This document shows, in pieces, positions 7,759 to 22,700 of a DNA stretch of 64,000 bases. Numbering within the stretch: position 1 is the stretch's first letter; each line of letters opens with the position of its first letter. A program made the translations under genes and the position numbers. This DNA comes from Patescibacteria group bacterium (GTDB lineage Bacteria > Patescibacteriota > Patescibacteriia > JAHJFT01), in assembly GCA_028710985.1 (NCBI GenBank), contig JAQTTB010000001.1, positions 457,864-521,863 of the forward strand. The letters are read 5' to 3'. The notes under the pieces are model-generated. The model did not search any database, was not told the DNA's origin, and worked only from the letters and a program-made list of their open reading frames with translations.

Positions 7759-9120
7759 ATGCCATCAGCAATCACCCAGGCGATCAAGCAGATTTGTGAG
7801 GAAAAAAACATTTCCTACGAAGCCGTGCTTGAGACAATTGAGGCGGCCATGGGCGCCGCGTACCGCAAGGATTTCGGCAATAAAATGCAGAATATCCGCG
7901 TTAATTTTGATCCCGAAACCGCCGGGATCAAGGTTTTTGACGTTAAAGAAGTGGTGGAGGATCAGGAAATCGAGGAACTTGAAGAAGGCGAAGCCGAAGC
8001 GGCCGAAGAGCCAAAGGGCAAAGAGGTCAAAGAAAAAGAAGAGGAAAAAGAAAAGCCCGTTGAGCCCAAAGAGGGCGAAGTGGCGGAAGGCGAGGAAGCG
8101 AAATTCAATCCCAAGACCCAGATTATGATTTCCGACGCCAAGGATATTAAAGCCGACGCGAAAATCGGGGACGAGATACGCGTTGAGCTTGAGGTTCCGG
8201 GAGAATTCGGCCGCATGGCCGCGCAGACCGCGAAACAGGTCATCACGCAAAAATTGCGCGAAGCCGAGCGTGAAAATGTTTATAAAGAGTATAAAGATCG
8301 CGAAGGTGAAGTCATCAACGCAGTTGTCCAGCGCCGCGAAGGCCGCATCGTGCTTATTGATCTCGGCCGTATCTCAGGCATCATGAGGCCCGAAGATCAG
8401 GTGCCCAGTGAATTTTATCGCCCGGGCGAGCGCATTAAGGTTTTTGTCGCCAAAGTTGAAATGACCACCAAGGGTCCGGAGATACTTCTTTCGCGTTCGC
8501 ATCCCGAGATGGTACGGCGCCTCTTTGAACTAGAAATTCCGGAGATTGCCTCCGGCGCGGTTGAGATTAAAGCTATCGCCCGCGAAGCCGGATCGCGCAC
8601 CAAAGTCGCGGTAACCACGCGCGAAGAAAATGTTGATCCAATCGGCTCCTGCATCGGTCAGCGCGGCACCCGTATCCAGACAATTATCAGCGAACTCGGC
8701 GGAGAAAAGATTGATATCATTGAATGGAAAGAAGATGCCGAAACATTTATCATGAATTCGCTTTCACCGGCCAAGACCGCCCGGGTTACTTTGGATCAAG
8801 AAGGGCACAGCGCGCTTGTGTCCGTGGCACCGGATCAGCTTTCGCTCGCCATCGGCCGCGGCGGACAAAATGTGCGCCTGGCCGCGCGCCTCACCAGCTG
8901 GAAGATTAATGTTGCCGAAGAAGGTGGTGGCGTGATTGCGGATTCGGAAAAAGGCGAAATCGCGGCTGAAGCCGAAAAGCCGGCCGAAGAAGCCGCGCCG
9001 GTCGCAGAGGTCAAACCCGCCGAGGAAATTGCCCCGGTTGAATCCAAGAAAAAGAAAGAACCAAAAAAGAAGAAAGTGAAAAAAGAGAAAAAAGAAGATA
9101 AAAAAGAAGGCAAAGAATAA
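7759..9120 (+). CDS. nusA: Transcription termination/antitermination factor NusA (with acidic/Lys-rich insertion and K-rich C-terminal tail)
   Basis: S1 and KH regions present: ...VVQRREGRIVLIDLGRISGIMRPEDQVP...PIGSCIGQRGTRIQ...AIGRGGQNVRLAARLTSWKINV. Confidence 0.9.
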   Translation: MPSAITQAIKQICEEKNISYEAVLETIEAAMGAAYRKDFGNKMQNIRVNFDPETAGIKVFDVKEVVEDQEIEELEEGEAEAAEEPKGKEVKEKEEEKEKPVEPKEGEVAEGEEAKFNPKTQIMISDAKDIKADAKIGDEIRVELEVPGEFGRMAAQTAKQVITQKLREAERENVYKEYKDREGEVINAVVQRREGRIVLIDLGRISGIMRPEDQVPSEFYRPGERIKVFVAKVEMTTKGPEILLSRSHPEMVRRLFELEIPEIASGAVEIKAIAREAGSRTKVAVTTREENVDPIGSCIGQRGTRIQTIISELGGEKIDIIEWKEDAETFIMNSLSPAKTARVTLDQEGHSALVSVAPDQLSLAIGRGGQNVRLAARLTSWKINVAEEGGGVIADSEKGEIAAEAEKPAEEAAPVAEVKPAEEIAPVESKKKKEPKKKKVKKEKKEDKKEGKE

Positions 9121-9132
9121 CCAGAAAATTTT

Positions 9133-9894
9133 ATGGAAATTTTTCAGACCATCCTTTATCAGCCAATATTTAATCTTTTGGTTTTGATTTACGATTTTAT
9201 TCCGGGCCACGACATCGGGCTCGTGATAATCGTGCTCACGCTCGCCATCAAGGTTATTCTCTACCCCTTGTCCCGCCAGTCAATAAAATCGCAAAAAGCC
9301 ATGACCGAGCTTCAGCCCAAGATTGACGAGATCAAAGAGAAATATAAAGACAAAAAAGATGAGATGGCCAAGGCCATGATGGAGATGTATTCTAGCCAAA
9401 AGGTGAGTCCGTTTTCTTCGTGTCTGCCACTCATTATTCAGTTGCCGATTATTTACGCCCTTTACCGCGTCATGCGCGACGGTTTGAGCTCGACGCATCT
9501 TGACCTGCTTTACGCCTGGGTGCCGAATCCCGGCCACATCAGTTCAATGTTTTTGGGAGAAATTGACTTGGCCGTGCCGAGTATTTTTCTCGCCGTGCTT
9601 GCCGGCATCGCTCAATTCTGGCAAGCCCGGATGATGAGCGTGCGCCAGCCGCCTAAGTCAATTCGCAAAAAAACCGGAGCCATTGACGAGAACCTGCTCG
9701 CTACCATGAACAAGCAAATGGTTTATTTCATGCCCATCATGACGGTGGTGATCGGCGTGTCTCTTCCCGGCGGCCTTGCGCTTTACTGGTTTATCAATAA
9801 TCTTCTCACCATCGGCCAGCAGTATCTGACTTTTGGCAAGAAAAAAACCGCGGCCGCGATTCCGCCGCCGGCTAATCCAACCCCGACCGTATGA
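9133..9894 (+). CDS. yidC: Membrane protein insertase YidC (short Oxa1-type form)
   Basis: ...MTELQPKIDEIKEKYKDKKDEMAKAMMEMY...LPLIIQLPIIYALYRVM... Confidence 0.85.
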   Translation: MEIFQTILYQPIFNLLVLIYDFIPGHDIGLVIIVLTLAIKVILYPLSRQSIKSQKAMTELQPKIDEIKEKYKDKKDEMAKAMMEMYSSQKVSPFSSCLPLIIQLPIIYALYRVMRDGLSSTHLDLLYAWVPNPGHISSMFLGEIDLAVPSIFLAVLAGIAQFWQARMMSVRQPPKSIRKKTGAIDENLLATMNKQMVYFMPIMTVVIGVSLPGGLALYWFINNLLTIGQQYLTFGKKKTAAAIPPPANPTPTV

Positions 9895-10229
9895 TTATCC
9901 CGTGGGAAAAATTAAAAAATTTACCGGTTGAAACCCAGAGCGGCGAACGGCTCGGCCGGATGAGTGGTTTTGATTTATCGAGCGACGGCCAGGACATTAA
10001 AACCTACCGCGTTAAAAGCCGCGGAATAATCAAGGGATTGATGAATGGGGAACTCCTGATCAGCCGTGAGCAGGTCGTGTCAATCAATGACGAACGTTTG
10101 ATCGTTCCCGACGCCCTGGTCACCGAAAAAAACGCGCTTCGGAGCGAAGTCGCGTCGCGCGTCACGGCCGAAAGCGCGCCCGCCACCCAGAGTCGGATTT
10201 CAAGCTCACAAAATTTAAATAATTCTTAA
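9891..10229 (+). CDS. PRC-barrel-like domain protein, translationally coupled to yidC (ATGA overlap)
   Basis: LGRMSGFDLSSDGQDIKTYRVKSRG...LISREQVVSINDERLIVPDALV resembles the PRC-barrel fold. Confidence 0.4.
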   Translation: MIIPWEKLKNLPVETQSGERLGRMSGFDLSSDGQDIKTYRVKSRGIIKGLMNGELLISREQVVSINDERLIVPDALVTEKNALRSEVASRVTAESAPATQSRISSSQNLNNS

Positions 10230-10239
10230 TTAAAATTTT

Positions 10240-10836
10240 ATGAATCAAGTCTTAAAAATTATCATCGTCGCATTGATCGCCGCAATTATTATCGGGGGTG
10301 GTTATTATTTCTGGCAAAAAAATCAAGCAACTCAGTCAACGGCAGGATTAGGAAACACAGCAGCACCGGCTGGGGAGGAGCTGCCCGATCCACTCTTGTA
10401 TTCAACGGCCGGCCTTCCGGTTTCAGTTTCGAAAAATGCAGTATTGTTTGATTACACAGTCGAGCAATTGGAGGGGATGGCAGGGGAATGTGGTTCTCAA
10501 CACGACCCCGATTATTTTGATGAATTGATTTTAAAGTTCGTCGCTGCGGGTGCGACAAAGCATATTTACAACCTTAAATATTCTGATGCGAGCCAGGAGC
10601 CTGACACTTTCGTCATTACCCTGTTGCCTAATGAAGCGGGATACGCTTCCCTTGATCAGTTCAAAAAAGATTTTGATATATGCGCCGCAGGTGGCGATGC
10701 TTATCCCACCATGCTCAGCGAAAATTGGCTTCTTTTTGTAAATTCATGCGGAAGCGGATTTGATGACGGTTCGGGACGACCGATCGGGTGCGAAAAAGTA
10801 CGAGAAATCGTTGAGCCTACATTGAAGTTGAGATAA
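10240..10836 (+). CDS. Membrane-anchored hypothetical protein
   Basis: N-terminal TM helix, 198 aa. Confidence 0.45.
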   Translation: MNQVLKIIIVALIAAIIIGGGYYFWQKNQATQSTAGLGNTAAPAGEELPDPLLYSTAGLPVSVSKNAVLFDYTVEQLEGMAGECGSQHDPDYFDELILKFVAAGATKHIYNLKYSDASQEPDTFVITLLPNEAGYASLDQFKKDFDICAAGGDAYPTMLSENWLLFVNSCGSGFDDGSGRPIGCEKVREIVEPTLKLR

Positions 10837-10857
10837 AAATCAGCGTGCAAAATTAAA

Positions 10858-10950
10858 CCGAAAAAATTTTTCAAGCCATCTCGAAAACACTGGCGTTGAG
10901 AGCCCGGGAATAAAACCGAAGTCGGTTTCCCCGGGTTTTTTGGCCGGAAA
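10858..10950. repeat. Degenerate, internally deleted duplicate of 13592-13800 (5' region of the gene at 13474-14490)
   Basis: cgaaaaaatttttcaagccatctcgaaaacactggcgtt matches cgaaaatttttcaagcaatcttgaaaacactggcgtt; ...cggtttccccgggttttttggccgg matches cggttttttccggggtttttattttttggccgg. Confidence 0.6.
10903..10941 (+). terminator. Nested hairpin (CCCGGGAA ... AAACCGA-ag-TCGGTTT ... CCCCGGG) + TTTTTT
   Basis: Read directly. Confidence 0.45.
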
Positions 10951-10979
10951 AATTAAAAGATTTATTTCGTATTAATCTA

Positions 10980-11007
10980 TTGACAAAATTGGGGATAGCA
11001 CTATGAT
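10980..11007 (+). promoter_or_regulatory. Sigma-70-like promoter TTGACA-N16-TATGAT upstream of the peptide/radical-SAM cassette
   Basis: Read directly; ~140-nt leader contains a long-range inverted repeat TGCTGCTTTGGGTC ... GGCCCAAAAAGCAGCA. Confidence 0.45.
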
Positions 11008-11147
11008 GATCATAGGTCCTTAACATCTAGCCTCAAGTCCTACTTCTCTTGCATTGCTGCTTTGGGTCAATGAAGTTAAACGAAAATTCATGGTGAATTT
11101 TCGGCCCAAAAAGCAGCAGAAGACTGTAGGCGAGAAAGGAGGAAAAA

Positions 11148-11285
11148 GTGAAAAAGCCGCGGAAAAACACCAAGCCAGTCGTGCTCAAGGCCGATGATCG
11201 CGCGAAGGTTCTGGGAAATATTCCCAAACCTGGTCGCGACGTCGCTGACTGCGTTTGCTACACATCGTGCACGCGCTGCACGTAG
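11148..11285 (+). CDS. Putative RiPP precursor peptide, 45 aa, Cys-rich C-terminus (SCIFF/ranthipeptide-like)
   Basis: GTG start 5 nt after GGAGG; translation VKKPRKNTKPVVLKADDRAKVLGNIPKPGRDVADCVCYTSCTRCT*; not in the ORF track (<60 aa); sits directly upstream of the rSAM/SPASM gene. Confidence 0.5.
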   Translation: MKKPRKNTKPVVLKADDRAKVLGNIPKPGRDVADCVCYTSCTRCT

Positions 11286-11296
11286 CCGCAATTGCA

Positions 11297-11339
11297 GTGG
11301 GGGGTGTGGAAAGTAACTCTTCCCACCCCCGCATTTTTA
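11297..11339 (+). terminator. Imperfect GC hairpin + ATTTTTA between peptide and maturase (partial terminator/attenuator candidate)
   Basis: GTGGGGGGTGTGGAAAG-taact-CTTCCCACCCCCGC then ATTTTTAT. Confidence 0.4.
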
Positions 11340-11358
11340 TAGAGAAGGAGAAAATGCT

Positions 11359-12717
11359 ATGCAACTTTCCCGATGGTGCCACACGTTGCATCAAGATGGC
11401 GTTTCGGCGCTGGTGAACGCACTGACTCTTGGAGTAGTGTACATTTCAACCGAGGAACTGCGCGCTTTTATGGAAGCACTGCCCTCATCAGATAATGTTG
11501 GTGAGGTGGGGCTCATAGAAATTCTTACAGCCCAGGGATTATTAGTTGAAAATCAGACTACCGATGAGTTGGTATTCGCAAGAACGCGCGAACGGCTCAG
11601 ATCGGAGATGTCGCTCGAGCTGCTATATTTGCTTGTCACCGACGGTTGCAACCTGCGATGTACCTATTGCTTCGAAGAAACGCCGTCGCTTACGGCCCCA
11701 TTCCATTCGACGCAGATGACTAAGGAAACGGTTATCAGGGCGCTCGATCTATTCGCGAGGATGACGGCACGACACGGCAACCCGGAAAAAAAGAAGGTGA
11801 TTCATCTTTATGGCGGCGAGCCGTTAGCGAACCGCAAGGCGGTATATGAGGCCGTGTTCTATGTTGACGAACTCAAGTCGCGCGGTATTTTGTCCGACAG
11901 CTGTCAGATCGCAATCGTGACCAACGGAGTACTTCTCAAAGAGGAGGACGCACGGCTCTTCGCGACACACAACGTTACGGTTGGACTCTCGATTGATGGC
12001 CCAGCATCAGTTACCGATTTTTATAGGATTCCAAAACGCCGAGATGTGCGCGTTACGGAACGCATTACTTCTGCATTTCGCCTGCTCAAGCGTCATAATG
12101 TGAGTATCGGGCTGTCGGTAACCTTGACGCCCCAAGCGATTGAACGCTTCGATGAATTCGTCGCCTTCTTCACGGACGGGGAATTTCGCGAGGTGGACGG
12201 TGTTAGTCTGAATTTACTTCATTTTTCGCCCAATCTGATATTGCCTGACGATTATTATCACGCGGCCGTAGAGTGCCAGATAAAATTCTTTAAACGGTTT
12301 CGTGAGGCCGGACTCTACGAGGAGCGGGTGATGCGTAAAGTTCGTGCATTCGTGGATCAAGAACCGATGTACGCAGATTGCGGCGTGGTAGGCCGACAGC
12401 TCGTCGTCGCTCCGGATGGACGCATTGGCGTCTGTCAGGACTTCGTCAAGCCAAGAACTTACTTTCCGCGCTCTGTGTACGACGTGGAACATCACGATCT
12501 CCTTGAGGCGCTCTTCGCGGACTGGCGCGATCGTTCACCGTTTTTCATGCCACAGTGCAGGGATTGTTTAGCCATTAGCATCTGCGGCGGCGGGTGTCCC
12601 GCGAGTGCCGAGCTTAAAACCGGTAGTCGGTATAATCTCGACGAACGCGCTTGCCATCATAGTAAGCAAATACTTGAATGGTTGGTCTGGGATGCGTACG
12701 CAAAGCTCGACGGCTAG
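11359..12717 (+). CDS. Radical SAM/SPASM-domain peptide maturase (N-terminal RRE-like region, CxxxCxxC, C-terminal SPASM cysteines)
   Basis: VTDGCNLRCTYCFEE; C-terminal CGVVGRQLVVAPDGRIGVCQDF...CRDCLAISICGGGCPAS; AAGGAG RBS 8 nt upstream. Confidence 0.85.
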   Translation: MQLSRWCHTLHQDGVSALVNALTLGVVYISTEELRAFMEALPSSDNVGEVGLIEILTAQGLLVENQTTDELVFARTRERLRSEMSLELLYLLVTDGCNLRCTYCFEETPSLTAPFHSTQMTKETVIRALDLFARMTARHGNPEKKKVIHLYGGEPLANRKAVYEAVFYVDELKSRGILSDSCQIAIVTNGVLLKEEDARLFATHNVTVGLSIDGPASVTDFYRIPKRRDVRVTERITSAFRLLKRHNVSIGLSVTLTPQAIERFDEFVAFFTDGEFREVDGVSLNLLHFSPNLILPDDYYHAAVECQIKFFKRFREAGLYEERVMRKVRAFVDQEPMYADCGVVGRQLVVAPDGRIGVCQDFVKPRTYFPRSVYDVEHHDLLEALFADWRDRSPFFMPQCRDCLAISICGGGCPASAELKTGSRYNLDERACHHSKQILEWLVWDAYAKLDG

Positions 12718-12761
12718 CGGCTATCAGGGGGTTGAGAATGCTCAAAATATTTGCTACAATA

Positions 12762-12797
12762 GGGAAGATGAGAAACGCTTATCTTCCCTAATTTTTT
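12762..12797 (+). terminator. Terminator hairpin GGGAAGAT-N11-ATCTTCCC + TAATTTTTTA, overlapped by the TTGAGA-N17-TACAAT promoter of the next gene
   Basis: Read directly. Confidence 0.5.
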
Positions 12798-12799
12798 AT

Positions 12800-13540
12800 A
12801 TGAACTATCCTCACATTACTTTTCGCAAAAGCGCAAAAAAAGATTTTGAAACTTTACGCGCCTTCACGAAAGATGCCGAATATGATAATGGCAGAAATTT
12901 GAATTGGGCAGTATTCAAAAAATATCCCCGTCTAAAAATATATTTTGATAAAGATAAACATTTCAAAATCAAAAATGAAAAAGTATTGAGCAATTTTATT
13001 GATGAAACATATCGTGGTGAACAGATAAATATGAATCGTGCCTTGGCCCAGCACAAAAAACGTTGGGAAAAAATTGCTTTGGATTATTTTTCACTCGTTG
13101 ACGAACTCTTCAGCGGACGCAAGTGGCCGCGGGGTAAATATGTCGCCTTAGGCACGATCTGGGGCATGTATCCGCGTTTTCTGGAAGACAAAACATTCCA
13201 GATTCCATTTCGCCATCGTACCCCCGGGTATATTTCAGTTGTGATTGCGCATGAACTACTCCATTTTATGTTTTATGACTATTTTTACGCTCATTATCCA
13301 AAATATCGTGGTTCCGGAAATAATTTTATTGTCTGGCATATCTCAGAAATTTTTAATACCGTCGTTCAGAACTCACCGGCGTGGCTTAGCCGTTTTAAAA
13401 TAAAATCACTTGGATATCCAGAACACAAAAAAATTGTCGCGCGCATAGGCCGTACCCTGTACTGCAGTAATACATGGGATCTGAACGCGCTGGTGGACAA
13501 AATAATAAAAGAAGTGCAGAATCAGAAAATAAACAAATAG
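12800..13540 (+). CDS. Hypothetical protein with an HExxH motif (AHELLHF); possible zincin-like peptidase
   Basis: 246-aa ORF; AT-rich and K/N/Y/F-rich, unlike the adjacent GC-rich rSAM gene; start ATG 12800 rather than ORF-track 12605. Confidence 0.5.
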   Translation: MNYPHITFRKSAKKDFETLRAFTKDAEYDNGRNLNWAVFKKYPRLKIYFDKDKHFKIKNEKVLSNFIDETYRGEQINMNRALAQHKKRWEKIALDYFSLVDELFSGRKWPRGKYVALGTIWGMYPRFLEDKTFQIPFRHRTPGYISVVIAHELLHFMFYDYFYAHYPKYRGSGNNFIVWHISEIFNTVVQNSPAWLSRFKIKSLGYPEHKKIVARIGRTLYCSNTWDLNALVDKIIKEVQNQKINK

Positions 13541-14490
13541 TCCCGACTGATGTTTTGCTTCGCGAAACAAAAAACTCTGTGCAAAATGATTCCTCGAAAA
13601 TTTTTCAAGCAATCTTGAAAACACTGGCGTTTTTTGACATTTTTGATTATCCGCTCACTTCATTGGAAATCTGGCGGTATCTGTACGCGCCGGGTGAGCA
13701 AAAAATTTCCCTGAATCAAATTATTGAAGCCCTGGGAAATCCGGAACTAAAAGCCAAAATCGGTTTTTTCCGGGGTTTTTATTTTTTGGCCGGCAAGCAG
13801 GATTCGGTTGAACTGCGCCGCGAGCGGAACGCAATTGCCGAAAAAAAATTAATCCGCCTCCGGCCATACGCAAAATATCTCAACCGGCTCGGCGCGGTCT
13901 CCGGAGTCGCGGTGGCTAACACTCTTGCCATAAAACACTCACGGCCCGAATCGGATATTGATTTATTCATCATCGCGCGTCCGCATGCGGTCTGGAGCGC
14001 ACGGTTCTGGGCCATTCTGCCGCTTTATTTTTTCGGCGGACGTCCCCGGCCGGGAAGCATGCGCGATAAATTCTGTTTGAGTTTTCTGGTTGATGAAAAT
14101 CATCTTGATATTCTGCCGTGGAAAATGGAGCAGGATATTTATTATATATACTGGCTCGCGACGCTCATGCCCGTCTCCGGTCCGGAAGTGTTTGCGAATT
14201 TTTTTGAAAAAAATAAATGGATAAATAAATATTTGCCGAATTTTTTCCCGCCCGAGATGAGCGCGCGCGGGGAGCGGCGCCCGGCCTCGCGCCTTCCGTG
14301 TTTCGGCGGACGCATCTTAAAAGCGATTCAGCTTTTTGTGATGCCAGCCGCGCTCAAGGAGGCGGCGGCGCGGCATCACACGGACGTTATAATTTCCGAC
14401 ACTGTTCTCAAATTCCACCTTAATGACCGCCGAAGTGAATATGAAAAATGCTACCAGAAACGAGTTGCGAAAATTATTGATACAGTATAA
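13474..14490 (+). CDS. Hypothetical protein with nucleotidyltransferase-like (GS...SDIDL) segment; start uncertain (TTG 13555 or GTG 13579 possible)
   Basis: ...GAVSGVAVANTLAIKHSRPESDIDLFIIARPH...; the 5' part is duplicated at 10858-10950. Confidence 0.45.
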   Translation: MGSERAGGQNNKRSAESENKQIVPTDVLLRETKNSVQNDSSKIFQAILKTLAFFDIFDYPLTSLEIWRYLYAPGEQKISLNQIIEALGNPELKAKIGFFRGFYFLAGKQDSVELRRERNAIAEKKLIRLRPYAKYLNRLGAVSGVAVANTLAIKHSRPESDIDLFIIARPHAVWSARFWAILPLYFFGGRPRPGSMRDKFCLSFLVDENHLDILPWKMEQDIYYIYWLATLMPVSGPEVFANFFEKNKWINKYLPNFFPPEMSARGERRPASRLPCFGGRILKAIQLFVMPAALKEAAARHHTDVIISDTVLKFHLNDRRSEYEKCYQKRVAKIIDTV

Positions 14491-14709
14491 AGCCCTTCCT
14501 ACAATGTGTTGGGCAATTATAATCGTTTTCTAGCATCACTCTTGTTTGCTTTCAGCAGGACATACTTTTGTAACCAAAAGTATGCAAAAGTTTCGGGGGC
14601 GCAAATTCGCTCTCGAATATAGGTAATGATTTACCGATTTAATCCACGCTCAGTTGCGCCCCCGAACCCCAGGGCACTGGTCAAGACGTTCTTAAAGGGT
14701 TCTCTCCCT

Positions 14710-14729
14710 CCTGCCTGCCGGCAGGCAGG
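14710..14729. repeat. Perfect 20-bp palindrome CCTGCCTGCCGGCAGGCAGG (copy 2), nested in a larger inverted repeat TCTCTCCCTC...GGGAGAGGCAGAGAGGG
   Basis: Read directly. Confidence 0.9.
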
Positions 14730-14796
14730 TTGTAAAGGGAGAGGCAGAGAGGGATTTTACGTCGTCGGTTAGGGCAGGGGTTAGGTAAGAAATAAT

Positions 14797-16122
14797 ATGT
14801 TACAACGCATCGCAAAATATCTCCTCTGGTTCTGGGTTTTTCTCATACCGTGGCAGACGCGGTGGATTATCGTTGATCCGATAATCGGCGGAGCGGCGTG
14901 GGAATATGGGCGGGTTAGCCTTTATGCGGGTGATATTATTTTTATAGCCCTTGCCGTCATTGCGGCATTTTTGGCTAAATCCCAAATCTCTCTGCCCGAG
15001 GCGGATGCGCCTCTGGTGCAAAATCTCAAATCTCAAAAATTTGGATTGAATTATATTTTAATTTTGATTTTTTTTCTGTGGGCCGGGGCGACTTTGATTT
15101 GGGTGGATGACCGGTTGGTCGGATTTTATTATGTTTTGCGTTTTAGCCAGATTGTTGCGCTTTGGTTTATCATAAAAATTATCAAACCAAATTTAAGTTT
15201 ATTTTTGTCCGCGCTGATTGCCTCCGGCGCGGTTCAGGCCGGGCTCGCGATCGCGCAGTTCGGATTTCAGTATTCTCCGGCCGATAAATGGCTCGGACTC
15301 GCCTCGCACGCGCCCTGGGAGCTTGGTCCGGCCGTGGTGGAAAGCGCGGCCGGCCGGTTTCTGCGCGCCTACGGCAGTTTGCCGCATCCCAACATGCTCG
15401 GCGGATTTCTGGTTTTTTGCCTGATCGCGGCCGCGCATTATATCAGCCGCGTTTCCGGACGAGTGGCGCTCTGGCTTGTCCTGCCCGTCCTCGTAATGTC
15501 GCAGGCCCTGGTCTGGAGCTTTTCGCGCTCTGCCTGGCTTGGACTCGCCTTCGGTTTTGCGGTTCTTATTCTAGGTTCGCGCGGCGTAAGAGATACACAG
15601 AAAAAATTCATCGTGATATTTGTTTTAATTTCGTCGGTTTTTCTCGCGAACGCCGCGCTCGCGCCCGATCTCCTGGGCTCGCGGCTCGCGGCCGCCGGCC
15701 GGCTTGAAGCCCAGTCAATTGCCGAGCGGGGAGCGCAGGCCGGACTCGCGCTTGAAGCCGCGAAATCCCATCTTCTGGGCCTCGGCCCGGGAAATTACAC
15801 GGTTTGGCTCATGCAAAAGTTTCCCAATTTGGCGGGCTATGCCTATCAGCCGGCCCACAATCTTTATCTTCTGGCATTGGCCGAACTCGGAATTCCGGGG
15901 GTAATAATTCTTGCCGCCCTGGCCGCCATGTTTTTGAAATTTTGCCGAAAAAATCTGCTTTGCCTTTCCCTGCTTGCGGCCGCCGGCATAATCAGCCTGT
16001 TTGACCACTATTTTTGGTCCAGCTACAGCGGAATTTTGCTCCTCGGCCTTGCCCTCATCCTGCCTGGGGTTAATGGGTTTTCAATTCACGCGCATTCTTG
16101 GTATAATAATCGCGAGGAATAA
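14797..16122 (+). CDS. O-antigen ligase-like (Wzy_C family) polytopic membrane protein
   Basis: Multi-TM protein with the ...SRSAWLGLAFGFAVLILG... segment typical of O-antigen ligase/O-oligosaccharyltransferase families. Confidence 0.55.
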   Translation: MLQRIAKYLLWFWVFLIPWQTRWIIVDPIIGGAAWEYGRVSLYAGDIIFIALAVIAAFLAKSQISLPEADAPLVQNLKSQKFGLNYILILIFFLWAGATLIWVDDRLVGFYYVLRFSQIVALWFIIKIIKPNLSLFLSALIASGAVQAGLAIAQFGFQYSPADKWLGLASHAPWELGPAVVESAAGRFLRAYGSLPHPNMLGGFLVFCLIAAAHYISRVSGRVALWLVLPVLVMSQALVWSFSRSAWLGLAFGFAVLILGSRGVRDTQKKFIVIFVLISSVFLANAALAPDLLGSRLAAAGRLEAQSIAERGAQAGLALEAAKSHLLGLGPGNYTVWLMQKFPNLAGYAYQPAHNLYLLALAELGIPGVIILAALAAMFLKFCRKNLLCLSLLAAAGIISLFDHYFWSSYSGILLLGLALILPGVNGFSIHAHSWYNNREE

Positions 16123-16140
16123 GAATGTTTAAGCCGAAAA

Positions 16141-16743
16141 ATGGATAGCCAAACTCGAAAGCTCTCCAGAGGCGAGAAGTGGAGCTTATTTGTATTAAGC
16201 GCCGCGACTTTGTGTATCGTAATTTTGGCTTCATGGCAGATGAAAAATACGATTTTTTCACCGTTTGTCCAGACGCCAAGTGAGGATACGCGCGCTCTGT
16301 TTGATAATTCACTGCAGCTTGAGGAATTGCGCGGCAAGGACAGCGATAGCGATGGCTTAAGCGACTTTGACGAGCTCTATGTCCACAATACGAGTCCGTA
16401 TCTTCCGGATACTGATTCCGACGGTATGAGCGATTCCGCGGAAATCACTGCCGGTAAAGACCCAAACTGTCCCGAGGGCCAGGAATGCTATATTGACCAG
16501 ACCGGCGGCACCTCGACCGCGGCCGGAGAAACCGAAGAAGTGAATTTGACGGAAAGCGAAAAGGCCGATCTTATGCTCCAGCTTCCGGCCGATGAGATCC
16601 GCGAGCTTCTGAAAAATGCCGGCGTGCCCGAGGAAACGCTCAACCAGCTTACTGACGACGAACTCAAACAGATGGTTGCCGATGTTCTTGCCGAAGAGGG
16701 CGGCTCATTGCCGGCGACCGGCTCAACTTCAACCCAAGAGTAA
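16141..16743 (+). CDS. Membrane-anchored protein with thrombospondin-type-3-like Ca-binding repeats (DSDSDGLSDFDE, DTDSDGMSD)
   Basis: N-terminal TM helix and acidic D-x-D-x-D-G repeats. Confidence 0.5.
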   Translation: MDSQTRKLSRGEKWSLFVLSAATLCIVILASWQMKNTIFSPFVQTPSEDTRALFDNSLQLEELRGKDSDSDGLSDFDELYVHNTSPYLPDTDSDGMSDSAEITAGKDPNCPEGQECYIDQTGGTSTAAGETEEVNLTESEKADLMLQLPADEIRELLKNAGVPEETLNQLTDDELKQMVADVLAEEGGSLPATGSTSTQE

Positions 16744-16747
16744 ATTT

Positions 16748-19700
16748 ATGATGCGTTTAAAACAACAAACAATGCGGACAATCGTTGCGCTTGTTTGTTT
16801 TGTTTTTGTTTGCAATCTCCTGCTCGTGCCGATTCATTACGCGCGCGCTCAACTGGTAGTAACGGATCCGGTTACCGGCCAGGCAGTCACCATAAAAAAT
16901 GTAAAAGATTTTATAAAGACCCTGCTTGTCGGCGTGGCCGGCGTTGCCGTAATTAACGCAGCAAATTATTTCGCACAAAAGCTCGCCTACGACGCCGCCG
17001 TAGCTTTGGTTTCCGGCGGTAAGGGCCAGATGCCGCTTTTTTCCACCAAGGGCTGGGGCGATTATTTTAAAGACGCATCGCTCGGCGCGGTCGGCGAATT
17101 TGTGGGCACTTTGTCCGAAGGATTTGAGGGCCTAGATCTCTGTAATCCCGGTCCGCCCGGCCTTGTGGCAAAACTTCAGACCAGTTTGGTCAAACCATAT
17201 ATTCCGGTGGGCGAAGGCCCGGAGCCAAAATGCGAGTGGAGCAATATTTCCGAAAACTGGACCGAGTTTACCGAAGACTTTACCACCGGCGAGGTTCTTC
17301 AGCGCTCGGGCGTGATGTTTGAACCCGGCCAGTCGCCGCTTTCCATTACCCTTGAAGCCAGCCGCAATCTTTCGGTTCAGGTTTATGAAATGGAAAAATT
17401 AAAAACCCTGGAACGCGAGGAGGGGGAAGGATTTTTGGCCAAGACCGGCATTATTTCCGGCGAGGTCCAGACTCCAGCCCAGGTCATCGCCCAAAAAGCC
17501 AAAGACCTTTCAAAGAGCGGCGAAGAATCCCAGCAAACTAATGTCCAGATGATGGGTTCGGCGCTCGGCGCCGGCGCGACGCAGATTCTCACTTCCGCGC
17601 TTGGCACATTCGTGAATACCCTGGCCGGAAAATTATTGGAAAAAATATTTAACAAGGGTTTAATTAGTTTTCAGAAAAAGGGAAAAAATACCGGCGCACT
17701 CATTAATCCTGAATTTTCGCTCGTCGGCACGCGCGAGGTGGCGCAGGAGATGCAGTCCGATCTGATTACCCCGCCGATTAAAGAGGCCGAGGTTTTTGAT
17801 CAGGTGACTGATTTTTCGGTCTGCCCCTCCCAGTTCGCCAGCCCGAATAACTGCGTAATTGACCAGGGATTTTCCGAAGCCCTGCGGCGGGAACAATCCG
17901 GTACCCCGCTCTCGGTCAAAGAGGCGATTAATCAGGGCCTGCTCCGCGGCGACTGGCCGCTTATTTCCTCGTATGACCGCGCCCGCAACACGGATATTTT
18001 TTGCTACACCTACGGATATTGCTATTCAAATTTAGTCAAACTTCGCAAGGCGCGCATCGTCCCGATCGGTTGGGAAATTGCCGCGCAAAAAAGCGGCGCC
18101 TCGGCTTCGCAGATAACCTTGAGCCAGGCCATGGATGCTTTCTATGACTGCGGAACCGATGCCGATGGCCGGCCGGTTGTGGATTCCGAACATCCGTGGT
18201 GCCACCTCGTCGATCCAAACTGGATTATCAAATATCCGCTTACCCAGTGCCGCGCTTCGGTCTACGGTTCAACCCTGCTCACCGCCGAAAACAGCCTGCG
18301 TTCCGAAACCTGCGTTGATTCGCCGACTTGCATTGCGGTTGATGACGGCGGATCCTGTGTCGGGGGTTGGGGATACTGCACCCGCGAAAAAAATACCTGG
18401 CATTTTGACGGCGACCAGTGTCCGGCGCGTTACGAGTCCTGCATCGCGCTTGAAGACCGGAGCGGCAATCAGGTTTCGTATTTATTAAATACCGTAAATT
18501 ACGGCGCCTGCACTTCGGAAAATGTTGGCTGTCGCTGGTACGCGCGCGAAAAGGCCGGCGACAACTGGACCGCGACCGCAAGTTATAATTCCACGGATAA
18601 AACCATGGTCGCGACCGCGGGCGCCATTTATTTAAACAAAAACGCGGCCGAATGTTCGGCTTCGGACGCCGGCTGCACGGAAATGATCCGTGCCACGGCG
18701 ACCGGAGCGACTTTGAATATTCTGCCCAATCCGAGTTTTGAAACCGCGTCCGCCGAAAATCCGGCCATGCCCGAGAACTGGGTTGCCGCCCGCGATAATT
18801 CCAAATACACCAGCGCGGCAACTACCCTGGACGCCACGGGGGACAAATCTTACGACGGGGTCGCGGCGGTTTCGCCCGGCACCGGCTTAGCCGCCGAAGT
18901 CAAACTCAATGCTTCAAGATTTTACACATTCTCTTTTTACGCGCGGACTTCCAGCCGCGCCACGCTTCTCGCCGGTGTTTCAGTCCTGAAGAGCGATCGT
19001 GTCAAAGCCGATCTCACGCCATATTATTTTTCTGGAACCAATTGCACGCGCGGCACCCAATTTGGCGAAGGCGGGGTAAATGAATCAGTTTATTTTAATC
19101 AGATTGCACCGCCCACCGAATACGCGCGCTATTCCTGCACCTTTACCACTCCGGTTGCCGCGGCTTCGCCCAAGGGATATTTTATCGGCCAGATATTTCT
19201 CTATAGCCAGGACGGCACCTGGATTGACGCCGTCCAGCTTGAAGAATCCGAAACCGTAACCGCGTTTCATGAAGGGATTTCCAGCGGAGCCGGGAGTGTT
19301 TATCTTAAAAAACCGCCCGAATATCTGGGATGCACCGGCGCCTCAACCGATCCGGCCGAATGTTCCAATTATCTGCGCCAATGCCTGGCATCGGATGTCG
19401 GCTGTTCAATGTATTATCCAACAAACGGCGATCCGGCGCTTGCCGCGGTCGCGACCGGCGAGAATATTTGTCCGGCCGAATGCGTCGGCTACGACACCTT
19501 CCGCGAAGAGCCGAGTCAGTGGACCGCCGCGGCCAAATTCCCGCTTTACTTAATTCCGGATACCGCCGAGATGTGTGAAGCGAGTGTCGTGGGCTGCGAT
19601 GAATTTACCAACTTAGATGCCGCTGAAGCTGGTGGGGAATCCAAAAATTATTTCACTTCAATCCGCTCCTGCCAGAAGCCGGCCGCGGACAGCGAAACGT

Positions 19701-22700
19701 TTTATACCTGGGAGGGCTCGGACACCGCCGGCTATCAGCTCAAGACGTGGGTGCTCAAGGCGAGCGACAAGGACGCCGGCCCGTGTACCACGCTCGCGCC
19801 GGGCGGGACCTGTAATGATCCAGCCGTCGGCACCGCGGACTATGACGAGCGCGACTGCTCGGAAGATTTTAAAACCGACGCCAACTGCCGCGAATTTTAC
19901 AATACCGCCGGCGGAATTTTTTATCGCAATTATTCAGATACCATTATTTCCACCGATGAATGCTATCGCTACCGCAAAACCGAAGCAACCGGGGAGGCGG
20001 ATTGCGAATCAACCGGCGGCCAGTGGAGCGCGGCCGGAGAATGCATTTATCTGGGCTATCCGTCCGAGAGCCAGCGCTGCGGCGCCGAATCCGCGGGCTG
20101 CCGCGCCTACACCGGCCCGACGAGCCGCAATGTTGAGGAAGAATTTTTTGACGAATTTGAAAATAACACAACCCAGGATTGGCAGGGCGGGGCCGTGAGC
20201 ACCGAATCCGTCACGCTCGGCGGGCATTCGCTCAAAGCCGCGTCCGGGGCCGCGGTTTCCAAAACCTGGGAATTAACCGCGGGCGAAACTTATATTTTGA
20301 GTTTCTGGGCCAAGGGACAAGGCACGGTGGCCGCGCAAATTGACGGCGAGCCGCTCGGCAGCGTCGCCCTCGGTTCGGAATGGGCAAATTATCAGGTCGG
20401 GCCCCTGCTCATGAGTGAGGCGGGGATAGGTTCAGTGGTTAGCTTCAGCGGATTTGCGGTTGATTCGTATCTGGACAACATCCGGCTCACTCGCGTATCG
20501 GATCATCTTTATTTAATTCGCAACTCCTGGTATACGCCGATGGTGTGCGACATGAATAATCAGGGCGTCTACCTGCCGCGCGCCCAACTCGGTTGCCGCG
20601 CCTACACGGACAGCGAAAATCAGGAAAAATATTTTAAATCATTCGATCGCCTTTGCAGCGAAGGGGCGGTGGGCTGCGAAGCTTTTATTGATACTTACAA
20701 TTCCGCGTCAACCGCGAAACAGATATTCAATCAGGGAGAGGACGGCGCCGAAGTCACGGTGCCCGGCGACACGCTTTCATATTATGTATATGACGAGAAC
20801 ATGGCCTGCGGCGCCGACGCCAAAGGTTGCGAAGCGATGGGTCGCCCGATTTTGGATCAGGATGGTCATACCGTGCTCTCGTACGATGATGTATATCTCG
20901 TGAACGATCCGGAAAATTATTCCAACTCGCTCTGCCTCACCGAAGAAGCCTACTGCGACGAATTCAAGGGCGATACCGGAACTTATTATTTCAAACATCC
21001 GGAAGACAAAACCTGCGAATTTAAGGAAAAGGTGAAAATTGCCGGGCTGGAATATTCGGGTTGGTTCCGCACCGGCACCGAAGACCCGTGCTATGGGTCG
21101 TATCTCGGCGCCGGCAACTCGTACGGTATCTGGAAAAACGGCGACTCGGGCTATGACGCCTGGTACGGCAACTGCCCGGCCGACATGAGCACCTGCACCA
21201 AATTTACCGATCCAGCCGACACTTCGGCCGATGAGCCGCAGGGCAAATCATATTATTATTTGGATAACGACACGCTTGATACTAAGAGCTGCGCTGGTTC
21301 GGCCTCCAAAAGCGCGGGCTGCGCCTTATTTAACAGTACTTCAAAGTCAACCAAGACAGAAAATTCCTGGGCGACTTATCTCACGAGCGAGGACAATAAT
21401 TTCGCCGCTGTTGCCACAATCGATTGCCTCAAAAGCGATAGTCCGTATTGTACCAAGGTTTGCTTTGATAAAGAATTCGGCCCGGAAGCGTTTGTTCCGT
21501 ACCGGTTCGGCCATAACTGTCGCGATGCCGGCGACTGTTCGGGCTACAGGGGTTGCGGTGAGATTTCAAGTTTTGGCAGCAAATGGCGGCACTGGATTCC
21601 GGAACAGAATATTTATCAATACACCGGTTCGTGCGAGGCCGGTTCGGTTTGCGCGGCCGGCAATCCGGGCTGTACCGTCGGCGATCTTTGCGTGGATATG
21701 GCCAAAGAGCTCCTGCGCAATGATTCAAATGAATTATTGAAAGTCCGCCGCGACCGCGAATGCGGCGAGTGGCTGGCGTGCCGCAGTTCGGTTTCGGTCT
21801 GGGACAATGAAACGCAAAAATACAAAAAAATCTGCACCAGCCTCGGGCTTTGCGACGAGTTTGCCCCGGTCGGGGATTCCAGCGAGTGCGTTCATTTTAT
21901 TGAGAGCGAACACGCCGAAGACGTGCTTTCCGAAGCGCTTTACACCGCGCGCGATGTTTCCTGGGAAGGCCAGGATTATTCGGGCTACGCCATTCCGAAT
22001 TATTATTCCATTGACGAGCTTTCGCCCATTGATTTGAGCAGTATTGTCGCCGGTTCAAGCCTGCCGGATTTGCGCGTTGCTTATGTTGAAACCGGCTGCG
22101 GCGCCGGCGTGGCTACTGGCCAGACATGCGGAGACGCGAACGCGCTCGGCAACAAGGGTGTCTGCGTTGCCCAAAAATGCGTTTATGCCATCAACGGCGA
22201 AGCCCTGCCCACGGCCGGAACATCGGCGGAATTATATACGTCGCTTACCGCCGGGGAAAACAAATACCGCGTGGTCGGCCAGTCCTGCCGCGCTTATCCG
22301 GAAGAAGGCGCGCCGTTCCCCTCAAGCGTGGCCGAGTGGGAGAACGGAAAAATGACCACCATTGACCCCAACTTCAAACGCGCCAATATCTGCGAGCAGT
22401 CGATCTGGGAAGATCTGAACAGCGACGGCGTGCGCGATGAAAACGAAATCACGTATCAGGACTGCGAATGCGATTATCAAAAAGTTGAATTTGGAAACGG
22501 CGCGGTCACGAAATTTTATTCCACCAATGAAGTTAATATTCCCAAAGGCATCTGCCTCAATGGCCCGCGTTCCGGGCTTTCGTGCGTGCCGGGCGCGGAA
22601 TACGACGACACCCTGCCGGCCGATTCCGCGGATAATCAAAAAACCTGCGGCGCGATTACTTCGGGCGGCGCCTGCCAGGCGGTTGAGCGCGCCGACAAAT

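Follow-up and report, generated by a model that had tools for sequence, protein, structure and literature searches.

The 64,000-nt window analysed here (positions 457,864 to 521,863 of contig JAQTTB010000001.1, assembly GCA_028710985.1, from a Patescibacteria group bacterium) carries three consecutive genes that encode, in order, a 45-residue cysteine-rich peptide, a radical S-adenosyl-L-methionine (SAM)/SPASM enzyme of 452 residues and an HExxH protein of 246 residues; these genes, and the RNA elements described around them, all lie on the + strand. The first, an open reading frame (ORF) at 11148-11285, had been proposed from the sequence alone to be an unannotated precursor of a ribosomally made peptide with post-translational modifications (RiPP) of the SCIFF/ranthipeptide type. 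The gene is real, and its product serves as precursor to a small modified peptide rich in cysteine. The gene model of that original prediction was confirmed against the sequence and the ORF list: the GTG start codon at 11148 is preceded, with a 5-nt spacer, by the Shine-Dalgarno sequence GGAGG (11138-11142; AAGGAGG is kept before the peptide start in relatives), an in-frame TAG lies upstream at 11127-11129, and the frame, whose stop codon ends at 11285, translates to VKKPRKNTKPVVLKADDRAKVLGNIPKPGRDVADCVCYTSCTRCT*. Four cysteines are found among the last 11 residues. Translation and alignment divide the peptide into a leader of approximately residues 1-34, in which Arg18 is invariant and Val21 nearly so (alignment A4) and which carries a KVLG motif, and the core C35-V-C37-Y-T39-S-C41-T-R43-C44-T. 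The overlapping ORFs had been called spurious, and indeed three antisense ORFs overlap 11148-11285 with nothing to mark any of them as a gene. The description ‘unannotated’ holds for the ORF track, with its 60-residue limit, but not for the public record: an identical 45-residue protein is deposited in GenBank as ‘hypothetical protein PHW53_02300 [Patescibacteria group bacterium]’, and searching with a profile turned up 40 deposited members of this peptide family, every one of them labelled ‘hypothetical’.

The enzyme gene (11359-12717) begins 73 nt after the peptide stop codon, where 70 nt had been given, and its product is deposited as ‘radical SAM protein’. It matches the Pfam families Radical_SAM (PF04055, 64.6 bits) and Fer4_12, and PF13186 was recorded for two of its homologues. 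In an alignment of 36 homologues (A1, also used to fetch the loci compared below), the cysteines of the CxxxCxxC motif (C97, C101 and C104; 11647-11670) are invariant in 36/36, and the SPASM region (C341-C432; 12379-12654) holds seven conserved cysteines, six of which (C341, C359, C400, C403, C409 and C413) are present in 36/36 and the seventh, C432, in 35/36; the sole other frequent cysteine of this region is C306 (30/36). Seven cysteines for two auxiliary clusters would, by analogy with CteB, leave one iron site open. The AlphaFold2 model of the enzyme is compact and globular (predicted local distance difference test, pLDDT, 92.7; predicted template modelling score, pTM, 0.90), and in it residues 7-82 (11377-11604) form a β3-α3 domain, with strands at 7-12, 15-20 and 26-30 and helices at 31-40, 50-58 and 66-82, which is as modelled the architecture of a RiPP recognition element (RRE). 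The RRE-like segment, the CxxxCxxC motif and the C-terminal SPASM array attributed to this 452-residue protein in the original prediction were therefore all recovered by alignment and structure prediction.

Comparison with known enzymes places the protein among peptide maturases, at a distance from every curated family. The top Foldseek match is the SCIFF thioether synthase CteB (5wgg; template modelling, TM, score 0.74/0.76), which itself bears an RRE and aligns over the full length, followed by TigE, an anaerobic sulfatase maturase, ChlB and SuiB. When a family profile was compared with solved structures TigE (8vpo) came top with 109 bits and CteB scored 108 bits, whilst the single enzyme sequence favours CteB over TigE. 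The best 25 of 59 NCBIfam matches are all to radical SAM/SPASM maturases (22 for peptides, two anaerobic sulfatase maturases and QhpD), and among these 25 none reaches its curated cut-off. The best-scoring model is that of the FibroRumin maturase (TIGR04136), which is aligned end to end (enzyme residues 3-447 against model positions 1-454 of 458) with 226.6 bits and E = 5.5e-67, well under its equivalog cut-off of 400; PapB (NF047865) follows with 119.2 bits against a cut-off of 340, and the nif11-type maturase and DynA models score 103 and 101 bits, respectively.

The third gene (12800-13540), which like the RNA features of the operon was not mentioned in the original prediction, is deposited as ‘hypothetical protein PHW53_02310’; a 311-residue ORF that begins with a GTG at 12605 is an artefactual extension of it. 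An all-against-all comparison of the ORFs of the loci placed this gene, the sole further neighbour to be conserved, just downstream of the enzyme gene in 23/25 genome loci, and the motif HExxHF is found downstream in 60/64 metagenome loci that have enough downstream DNA. The protein has 228 homologues, none of which is named or has a Pfam domain. Both the motif H151-E152-x-x-H155 (13250-13264) and E183 (13346-13348), 28 residues after it, are invariant, and in the AlphaFold2 model (pLDDT 93.9; compact and globular, pTM 0.90) the motif lies on helix 144-165 and E183 on the following helix, within a zincin fold that is closest to the M1 peptidases. The features of a gluzincin that can be read from sequence and model (HExxH, a downstream Glu ligand and the zincin fold) are thus all present, and the arrangement resembles that of thermolysin and the catalytic domain of M1 aminopeptidases; unlike those proteins, this one is small and single-domain, and it matches no curated peptidase family aside from a faint match to PF11667 (‘putative zincin peptidase’), seen in 18/35 members of the family. 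A sequence search of solved structures with the protein returned only chance ferritin matches (E>0.3). It is a candidate new zincin family coupled to RiPP maturation, and a candidate leader peptidase.

Two side observations concern this gene. Its G+C content is 38-42%, against 50-53% for the radical SAM gene and most of the surrounding DNA, a difference that may stem from the amino-acid composition of its product (with much Lys, Phe, Tyr, Asn and Ile) or from a distinct history. In a metagenome-assembled genome (MAG) of Bryobacteraceae (L023:1185-2678), a 497-residue HExxH protein (HEIAGH) is encoded just upstream of a radical SAM homologue of 29% identity, an arrangement which hints that this radical SAM clade may have HExxH proteins as partners outside the candidate phyla radiation (CPR) as well.

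Conservation of the small ORF alongside the enzyme, the lack of which had been named as grounds for abandoning the proposal, was assessed in 25 loci from species-representative genomes and 80 from metagenomes. A same-strand small ORF precedes the enzyme gene in 19/19 Patescibacteria genome loci that have upstream DNA, and in these 19 it stops 55-134 nt before the enzyme gene and ends in a C-terminal CC[Y/F]T.C.[R/Y]C. Among the metagenome loci a cysteine-rich ORF is present in 56/59 that have at least 150 nt upstream, 47 of them fitting the strict pattern and nine being variants (with cores such as CCQTSCTRC, CCNTSCTRC, CCHTACTRC, CCHSSCTRC and CCFAVCTRC, plus one divergent peptide). The peptide is conserved beside enzyme homologues that are 37-85% identical to the enzyme of the window. 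Pooling yielded 84 peptides that differ in sequence and have C(x)C-[Y/F]-T-x-C-x-R-C as their core, which reads CCYTSCTRC in 34 of them; the Thr and the Arg are each kept in 81 peptides, 83 retain the final Cys, and 80 have an aromatic residue (Tyr/Phe/Trp). Twelve of the 84 have a one-residue insert between the first and second Cys, and the CVC of the window is unique among those 12. In 63/84 the core is C-terminal or followed by a single residue, and in the remaining peptides up to 21 further residues come after it. In a set of 20 loci, the invariant Thr is encoded by all four of its codons, Ser by TCN and AGC, Arg by CGN and AGR, and Cys by both of its codons; this synonymous turnover at invariant residues indicates that conservation acts on the protein. 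A CxxxCxxC motif, a seven-cysteine SPASM region, an RRE and an adjacent, co-conserved precursor with leader and core, which together characterize a generic radical SAM/SPASM RiPP maturase, are all found at this locus.

These data rule out the reading that the small ORF arose by chance and that the enzyme acts on a protein, in the manner of an anaerobic sulfatase maturase or QhpD, or on a small molecule, which we now regard as almost certainly wrong. It could draw on the shortness of the ORF, on the antisense ORFs that overlap it and on the partial scores of the enzyme against the anaerobic sulfatase maturase (TIGR03942, 90.7 bits) and QhpD (TIGR03906, 94 bits) models. Those scores are, however, far under the cut-offs of 349 and 453, no sulfatase or QhpC family match was found among the ten proteins scanned at 7759-16743 (flanks of approximately 3-4 kb), and the peptide is conserved in 75/78 loci, with synonymous turnover at its invariant residues, a conserved Shine-Dalgarno sequence and a partner enzyme that has an RRE domain. 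An anaerobic sulfatase maturase with a sulfatase nearby, which the original prediction had named as the alternative that would overturn it, is thereby rejected. The distant homologues from outside the CPR (L021, Elusimicrobiota; L022, Nonomuraea; L023, Bryobacteraceae), which are 29-32% identical, lack a peptide of comparable kind beside them and are for that reason uninformative on function. At another locus (L098:2230-2435), a different cysteine-rich peptide (…LRCACHCQCVCNCPSTCANCKAH…) precedes a radical SAM homologue of 33% identity, and a scan of 1.3 kb downstream revealed no HExxHF motif; the pair probably represents a sister RiPP family.

Several features at the RNA level accompany the three genes. 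Upstream of the peptide gene lies a sigma-70-type promoter, TTGACA-16 nt-TATGAT (10980-11007), which matches the consensus at 11/12 positions; no other site in the region ranks as high, and CTTGACAAAAT is kept in the closest relatives. It is followed by a structured 5′ leader (11037-11131), a long imperfect stem-loop of 33 pairs with an apical hairpin at 11081-11103, for which the single-sequence fold has an energy of -42.8 kcal/mol (z = -3.1). The stem-loop is common to the five closest relatives that align, and over six close relatives pairing extends to 93% of cells, with compensatory changes at 11 pairs; 0/500 shuffles are as good, and in slid controls the number of such pairs is 1-4. The stem-loop stops just short of the Shine-Dalgarno sequence, which stays unpaired, and it could stabilize the mRNA or be a regulatory element; a search of Rfam over 10700-11500 returned only a sub-threshold nuoG match on the opposite strand, which was discarded. 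In the gap between the peptide and maturase genes there is a GC-rich hairpin followed by a U-tract (11296-11340; -23.1 kcal/mol, z = -2.5), and a stable GC-rich hairpin occupies this gap in approximately 18/20 loci, as judged by eye from the fold outputs, with sequences that are unrelated. A hairpin after the structural gene is familiar in RiPP operons, and this one is a probable leaky terminator or mRNA stabilizer. Between the enzyme and HExxH genes, a terminator-like hairpin (12760-12799) consists of a 13-pair stem at 12760-12790 and then the T-run ATTTTTTATA, and it is overlapped by a promoter-like TTGAGA-17-TACAAT (12732-12760; 10/12 positions).

The reading we favour, to which we give a probability of about 0.7, is that the three genes form a RiPP cassette of precursor, radical SAM maturase and zincin, in which the core peptide receives a thioether cross-link and the zincin removes the leader. 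The strong promoter would yield a transcript with the structured 5′ leader and the 45-codon precursor gene, and, if the hairpin and U-tract after that gene attenuate transcription, precursor mRNA would probably exceed maturase mRNA. The basic leader, with its invariant Arg18 and its V-L-x...R-x-K-V-L-G motif, is expected to dock on the N-terminal RRE of the enzyme. The [4Fe-4S] cluster held by CxxxCxxC would then cleave SAM, and the resulting 5′-deoxyadenosyl radical would take a hydrogen from the C(x)C-Y-T-S-C-T-R-C core, whereupon a core Cys bound, as in CteB, to the open iron of the SPASM auxiliary cluster would capture the carbon radical to form one or more intramolecular thioether rings. 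The likeliest acceptor would be the near-invariant Thr39, two residues past Cys37, by analogy with the Cys32-Thr34 link of the SCIFF precursor CteA. Finally, the gluzincin-like HExxH protein, presumably cytoplasmic, may cut off the leader to release a cross-linked peptide of approximately 10-12 residues.

By analogy with characterized systems, a thioether cross-link appears the likeliest chemistry because no residues of the core are more conserved than its cysteines, the closest relative by structure is CteB, thioether-synthase models come high in the list of matches, and C-x-T-S-C-T is common to this core and SCIFF. Several observations weigh against it. TigE, which the family profile ranks level with CteB, is a methyl-cyclopropylglycine synthase, and with such near-equal similarity homology alone cannot fix the reaction; the enzyme, moreover, scores under the curated cut-off of every thioether-synthase model. 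The position of Thr39 is Ser in 2/84 peptides and Ala in 1/84, so the C-gamma of Thr is not a universal acceptor. The six residues of CteB described as being in ‘catalytic proximity’ map to F105, Y151, V187, S211, Q360 and D361, and identity or similarity holds at just 3/6 (this enzyme, F/Y/V/S/Q/D; CteB, F/F/T/S/H/Q). In addition, the flanks of the compared loci share neither an exporter gene nor an immunity gene.

The parallel with SCIFF (thermocellin; CteA/CteB, TIGR03973 and TIGR03974) is the closest that was found. Both systems have a precursor of approximately 45 residues with a basic leader and a cysteine-rich C-terminal core, which is encoded directly upstream of an enzyme with RRE, radical SAM and SPASM domains; both have the C-x-T-S-C-T pattern at the cross-link site (in SCIFF the link has been described from Cys32 to Thr34 or Thr37), and in both the core is very conserved across a bacterial lineage. 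The SCIFF precursor, however, has six cysteines where this one has four, its leader is different and it belongs to Clostridia rather than Patescibacteria, and SCIFF is by description a precursor and a maturase, whereas here there is a dedicated HExxH partner. The SCIFF label of the original prediction accordingly falls, whilst its description of a RiPP precursor beside an RRE-bearing radical SAM/SPASM maturase stands: neither the peptide of the window nor two relatives match TIGR03973 even at E<=10, where the criterion is at least 50 bits and a SCIFF control sequence, which carries C-K-T-S-C-T, scores 88.8 bits, and the enzyme reaches 92.7 bits on the maturase model TIGR03974 against a cut-off of 425. 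No Pfam or NCBIfam model matches the peptide even at E<=10, a point that also sets it apart from the FibroRumin system, and the maturase models most pertinent to the proposal (SCIFF, PapB and FibroRumin) all leave the enzyme under cut-off. PapB (freyrasin), QhpD, StsB and RumMC resemble it as radical SAM/SPASM enzymes that link the sulfur of a Cys to a carbon of another residue; the core here, however, lacks CxxxD repeats, and the scores with these ranthipeptide or sactipeptide synthases are all far under the cut-offs. By the model criterion the enzyme is not a sactisynthase (RumMC, 65.8 against 720 bits; StsB, 61 against 625 bits). As ranthipeptides and sactipeptides are defined by thioether chemistry, which is unreadable from sequence, either label stays hypothetical here. 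The cassette works like SCIFF/CteB-type systems and is not a member of that family: radical SAM/SPASM RiPPs as a kind are well known, whilst novelty lies in the families of precursor and dedicated zincin, in the subfamily of the maturase and in the confinement to the CPR. A literature search that combined Patescibacteria or CPR with ranthipeptide, SPASM and radical SAM found no paper describing this cassette.

That the chemistry is of another kind altogether seems to us rather unlikely. In such a case the enzyme might make a C-C or C-O cross-link involving Tyr38 and Arg43, epimerize residues or oxidize cysteines, and the HExxH protein, rather than hydrolysing off the leader, might hydroxylate the peptide or cleave it oxidatively as an alpha-ketoglutarate/Fe(II) oxygenase resembling ChlH or PflC, which are likewise HExxH proteins coupled genetically to RiPP pathways. 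The standing of TigE, a C-C bond former, beside CteB in the family profile speaks for this, as do the matches of the ChlB (cyclophane) and DynA models and the retention of an aromatic residue in 80/84 and of Arg in 81/84 cores. Four of the 84, however, have His, Gln or Asn in place of the aromatic residue, so that an aromatic cross-link is unlikely to be obligatory, whereas hardly any variation is seen at the Cys positions, and the cyclophane models score lower than the thioether ones (GrrM 67.7, FxsB 58.8 and YhhB 77 bits, against 119 for PapB). A maturase of three-residue cyclophanes (triceptides), for which an aromatic-x-x motif with an obligatory aromatic residue and a match to the GrrM, FxsB, YhhB or AmcB models were the criteria, was rejected on the same replacements and on cyclophane scores of 58-77 bits against cut-offs of 310-445. 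TigE/TvgB does share the full-length RRE, radical SAM and SPASM architecture; in the TigE paper, however, a GYW motif, the Tyr of which ligates auxiliary cluster I, is described as unique to all cyclopropyl synthases, and the present family has G-[LIV]-Y-E at that site and a core with no repeated Val/Ile motif, so a cyclopropylglycine synthase function was rejected. As to the partner protein, none of 35 members of the HExxH family matches the NCBIfam peptide-hydroxylase models, whilst 18 show the faint zincin-peptidase match noted above, and the invariant Glu on the helix after HExxH is the gluzincin arrangement. Membership of the alpha-ketoglutarate HExxH oxygenases (IPR026337, which we take to be TIGR04267) was discarded, as that model was not matched.

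A separate question is whether the product of the same three genes is a secreted antimicrobial at all. It may instead stay in or on the cell, as a thiol peptide that binds metal or a cluster, as the precursor of a redox cofactor like PqqA or MftA, or as an episymbiotic signal, a proposal that is doubtful but somewhat better placed than a different chemistry. The core is near-invariant (CCYTSCTRC in the 34 peptides mentioned) while the enzymes fall to 37% identity, a constancy that recalls SCIFF, PqqA and MftA rather than fast-evolving bacteriocins and suggests a conserved target or role, not an arms-race toxin. Apart from the three genes themselves, the loci have no transporter, immunity or regulator gene in common; neither AlphaFold2 model has a transmembrane segment (no signal-peptide predictor was run); and the cassette is kept in genomes of less than 1 Mb (one contig of 744 kb, another of 839 kb). 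For SCIFF itself, it has been reviewed that wide spread among Clostridia speaks against an antimicrobial role, and quorum sensing is listed as its function. Against this proposal stand the decay of the cassette at three loci (L024, L025 and L091), by which it is shown to be dispensable in some lineages, flanking genes that vary among genomes, a strict pattern scan that finds it in just 25 of 185,579 species genomes, and the fact that no cofactor-utilizing enzyme is linked downstream. Taken furthest, and as a speculation that we hold with no more confidence, the cassette would make a lineage-wide, near-invariant, cross-linked cysteine-rich nonapeptide, matured intracellularly by a zincin of a new family and with no dedicated exporter, which might serve as a conserved physiological molecule of Parcubacteria-type Patescibacteria (binding metal or Fe-S, acting as a redox cofactor, or signalling in host attachment or communication) and not as an antibiotic, and whose type of cross-link is perhaps undescribed.

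Patescibacteria (CPR) have tiny genomes, to which scant biosynthetic capacity, or none, is usually assigned, and in one survey no biosynthetic gene clusters were found in its Patescibacteria MAGs. Here, a compact three-gene cassette for peptide modification is conserved over many Parcubacteria-type lineages, with all three of its families outside curated models. With three genes and a nine-residue core it is a small and easily testable system for new radical SAM chemistry, and its product is a candidate for a part in the interactions of these episymbionts, of which little is understood. By record titles the lineages that carry it are Azambacteria, Liptonbacteria, Portnoybacteria, Moraniibacteriota (Moranbacteria), Paceibacterota, Parcubacteria, Nealsonbacteria and Wolfebacteria; a few of the MAGs are labelled ‘Gammaproteobacteria’, ‘Saccharibacteria’ or ‘Bacteroidota’, labels that look doubtful; a contig of 839 kb is among those that bear the first of them. 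From the contig names, some of the metagenome source samples appear to be groundwater.

At the decayed loci (L024:3001-4124, L025:3001-3939 and L091:2133-3014) only the 3′ part of the radical SAM gene is left, corresponding to enzyme residues 348-450 (L024), 405-451 (L025) and 156-450 (L091). L024 and L025 have an intact HExxH gene but lack a precursor peptide, and their maturase fragments lie directly against unrelated genes. In the window, the ORFs that flank the cassette at 10240-10836 (198 residues) and 13474-14490 (338 residues) have no significant Pfam or NCBIfam match, the former aligning only with PF13190 (PDGLE) at E = 0.14, and neither is conserved beside the cassette at other loci. 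Further downstream lie genes for an O-antigen-ligase-like membrane protein (14797-16122) and a TSP3-repeat protein (16141-16743), followed by a giant ORF of 2988 residues (16616-25582), which suggests that a neighbourhood of cell-surface genes lies on the downstream side of the cassette.

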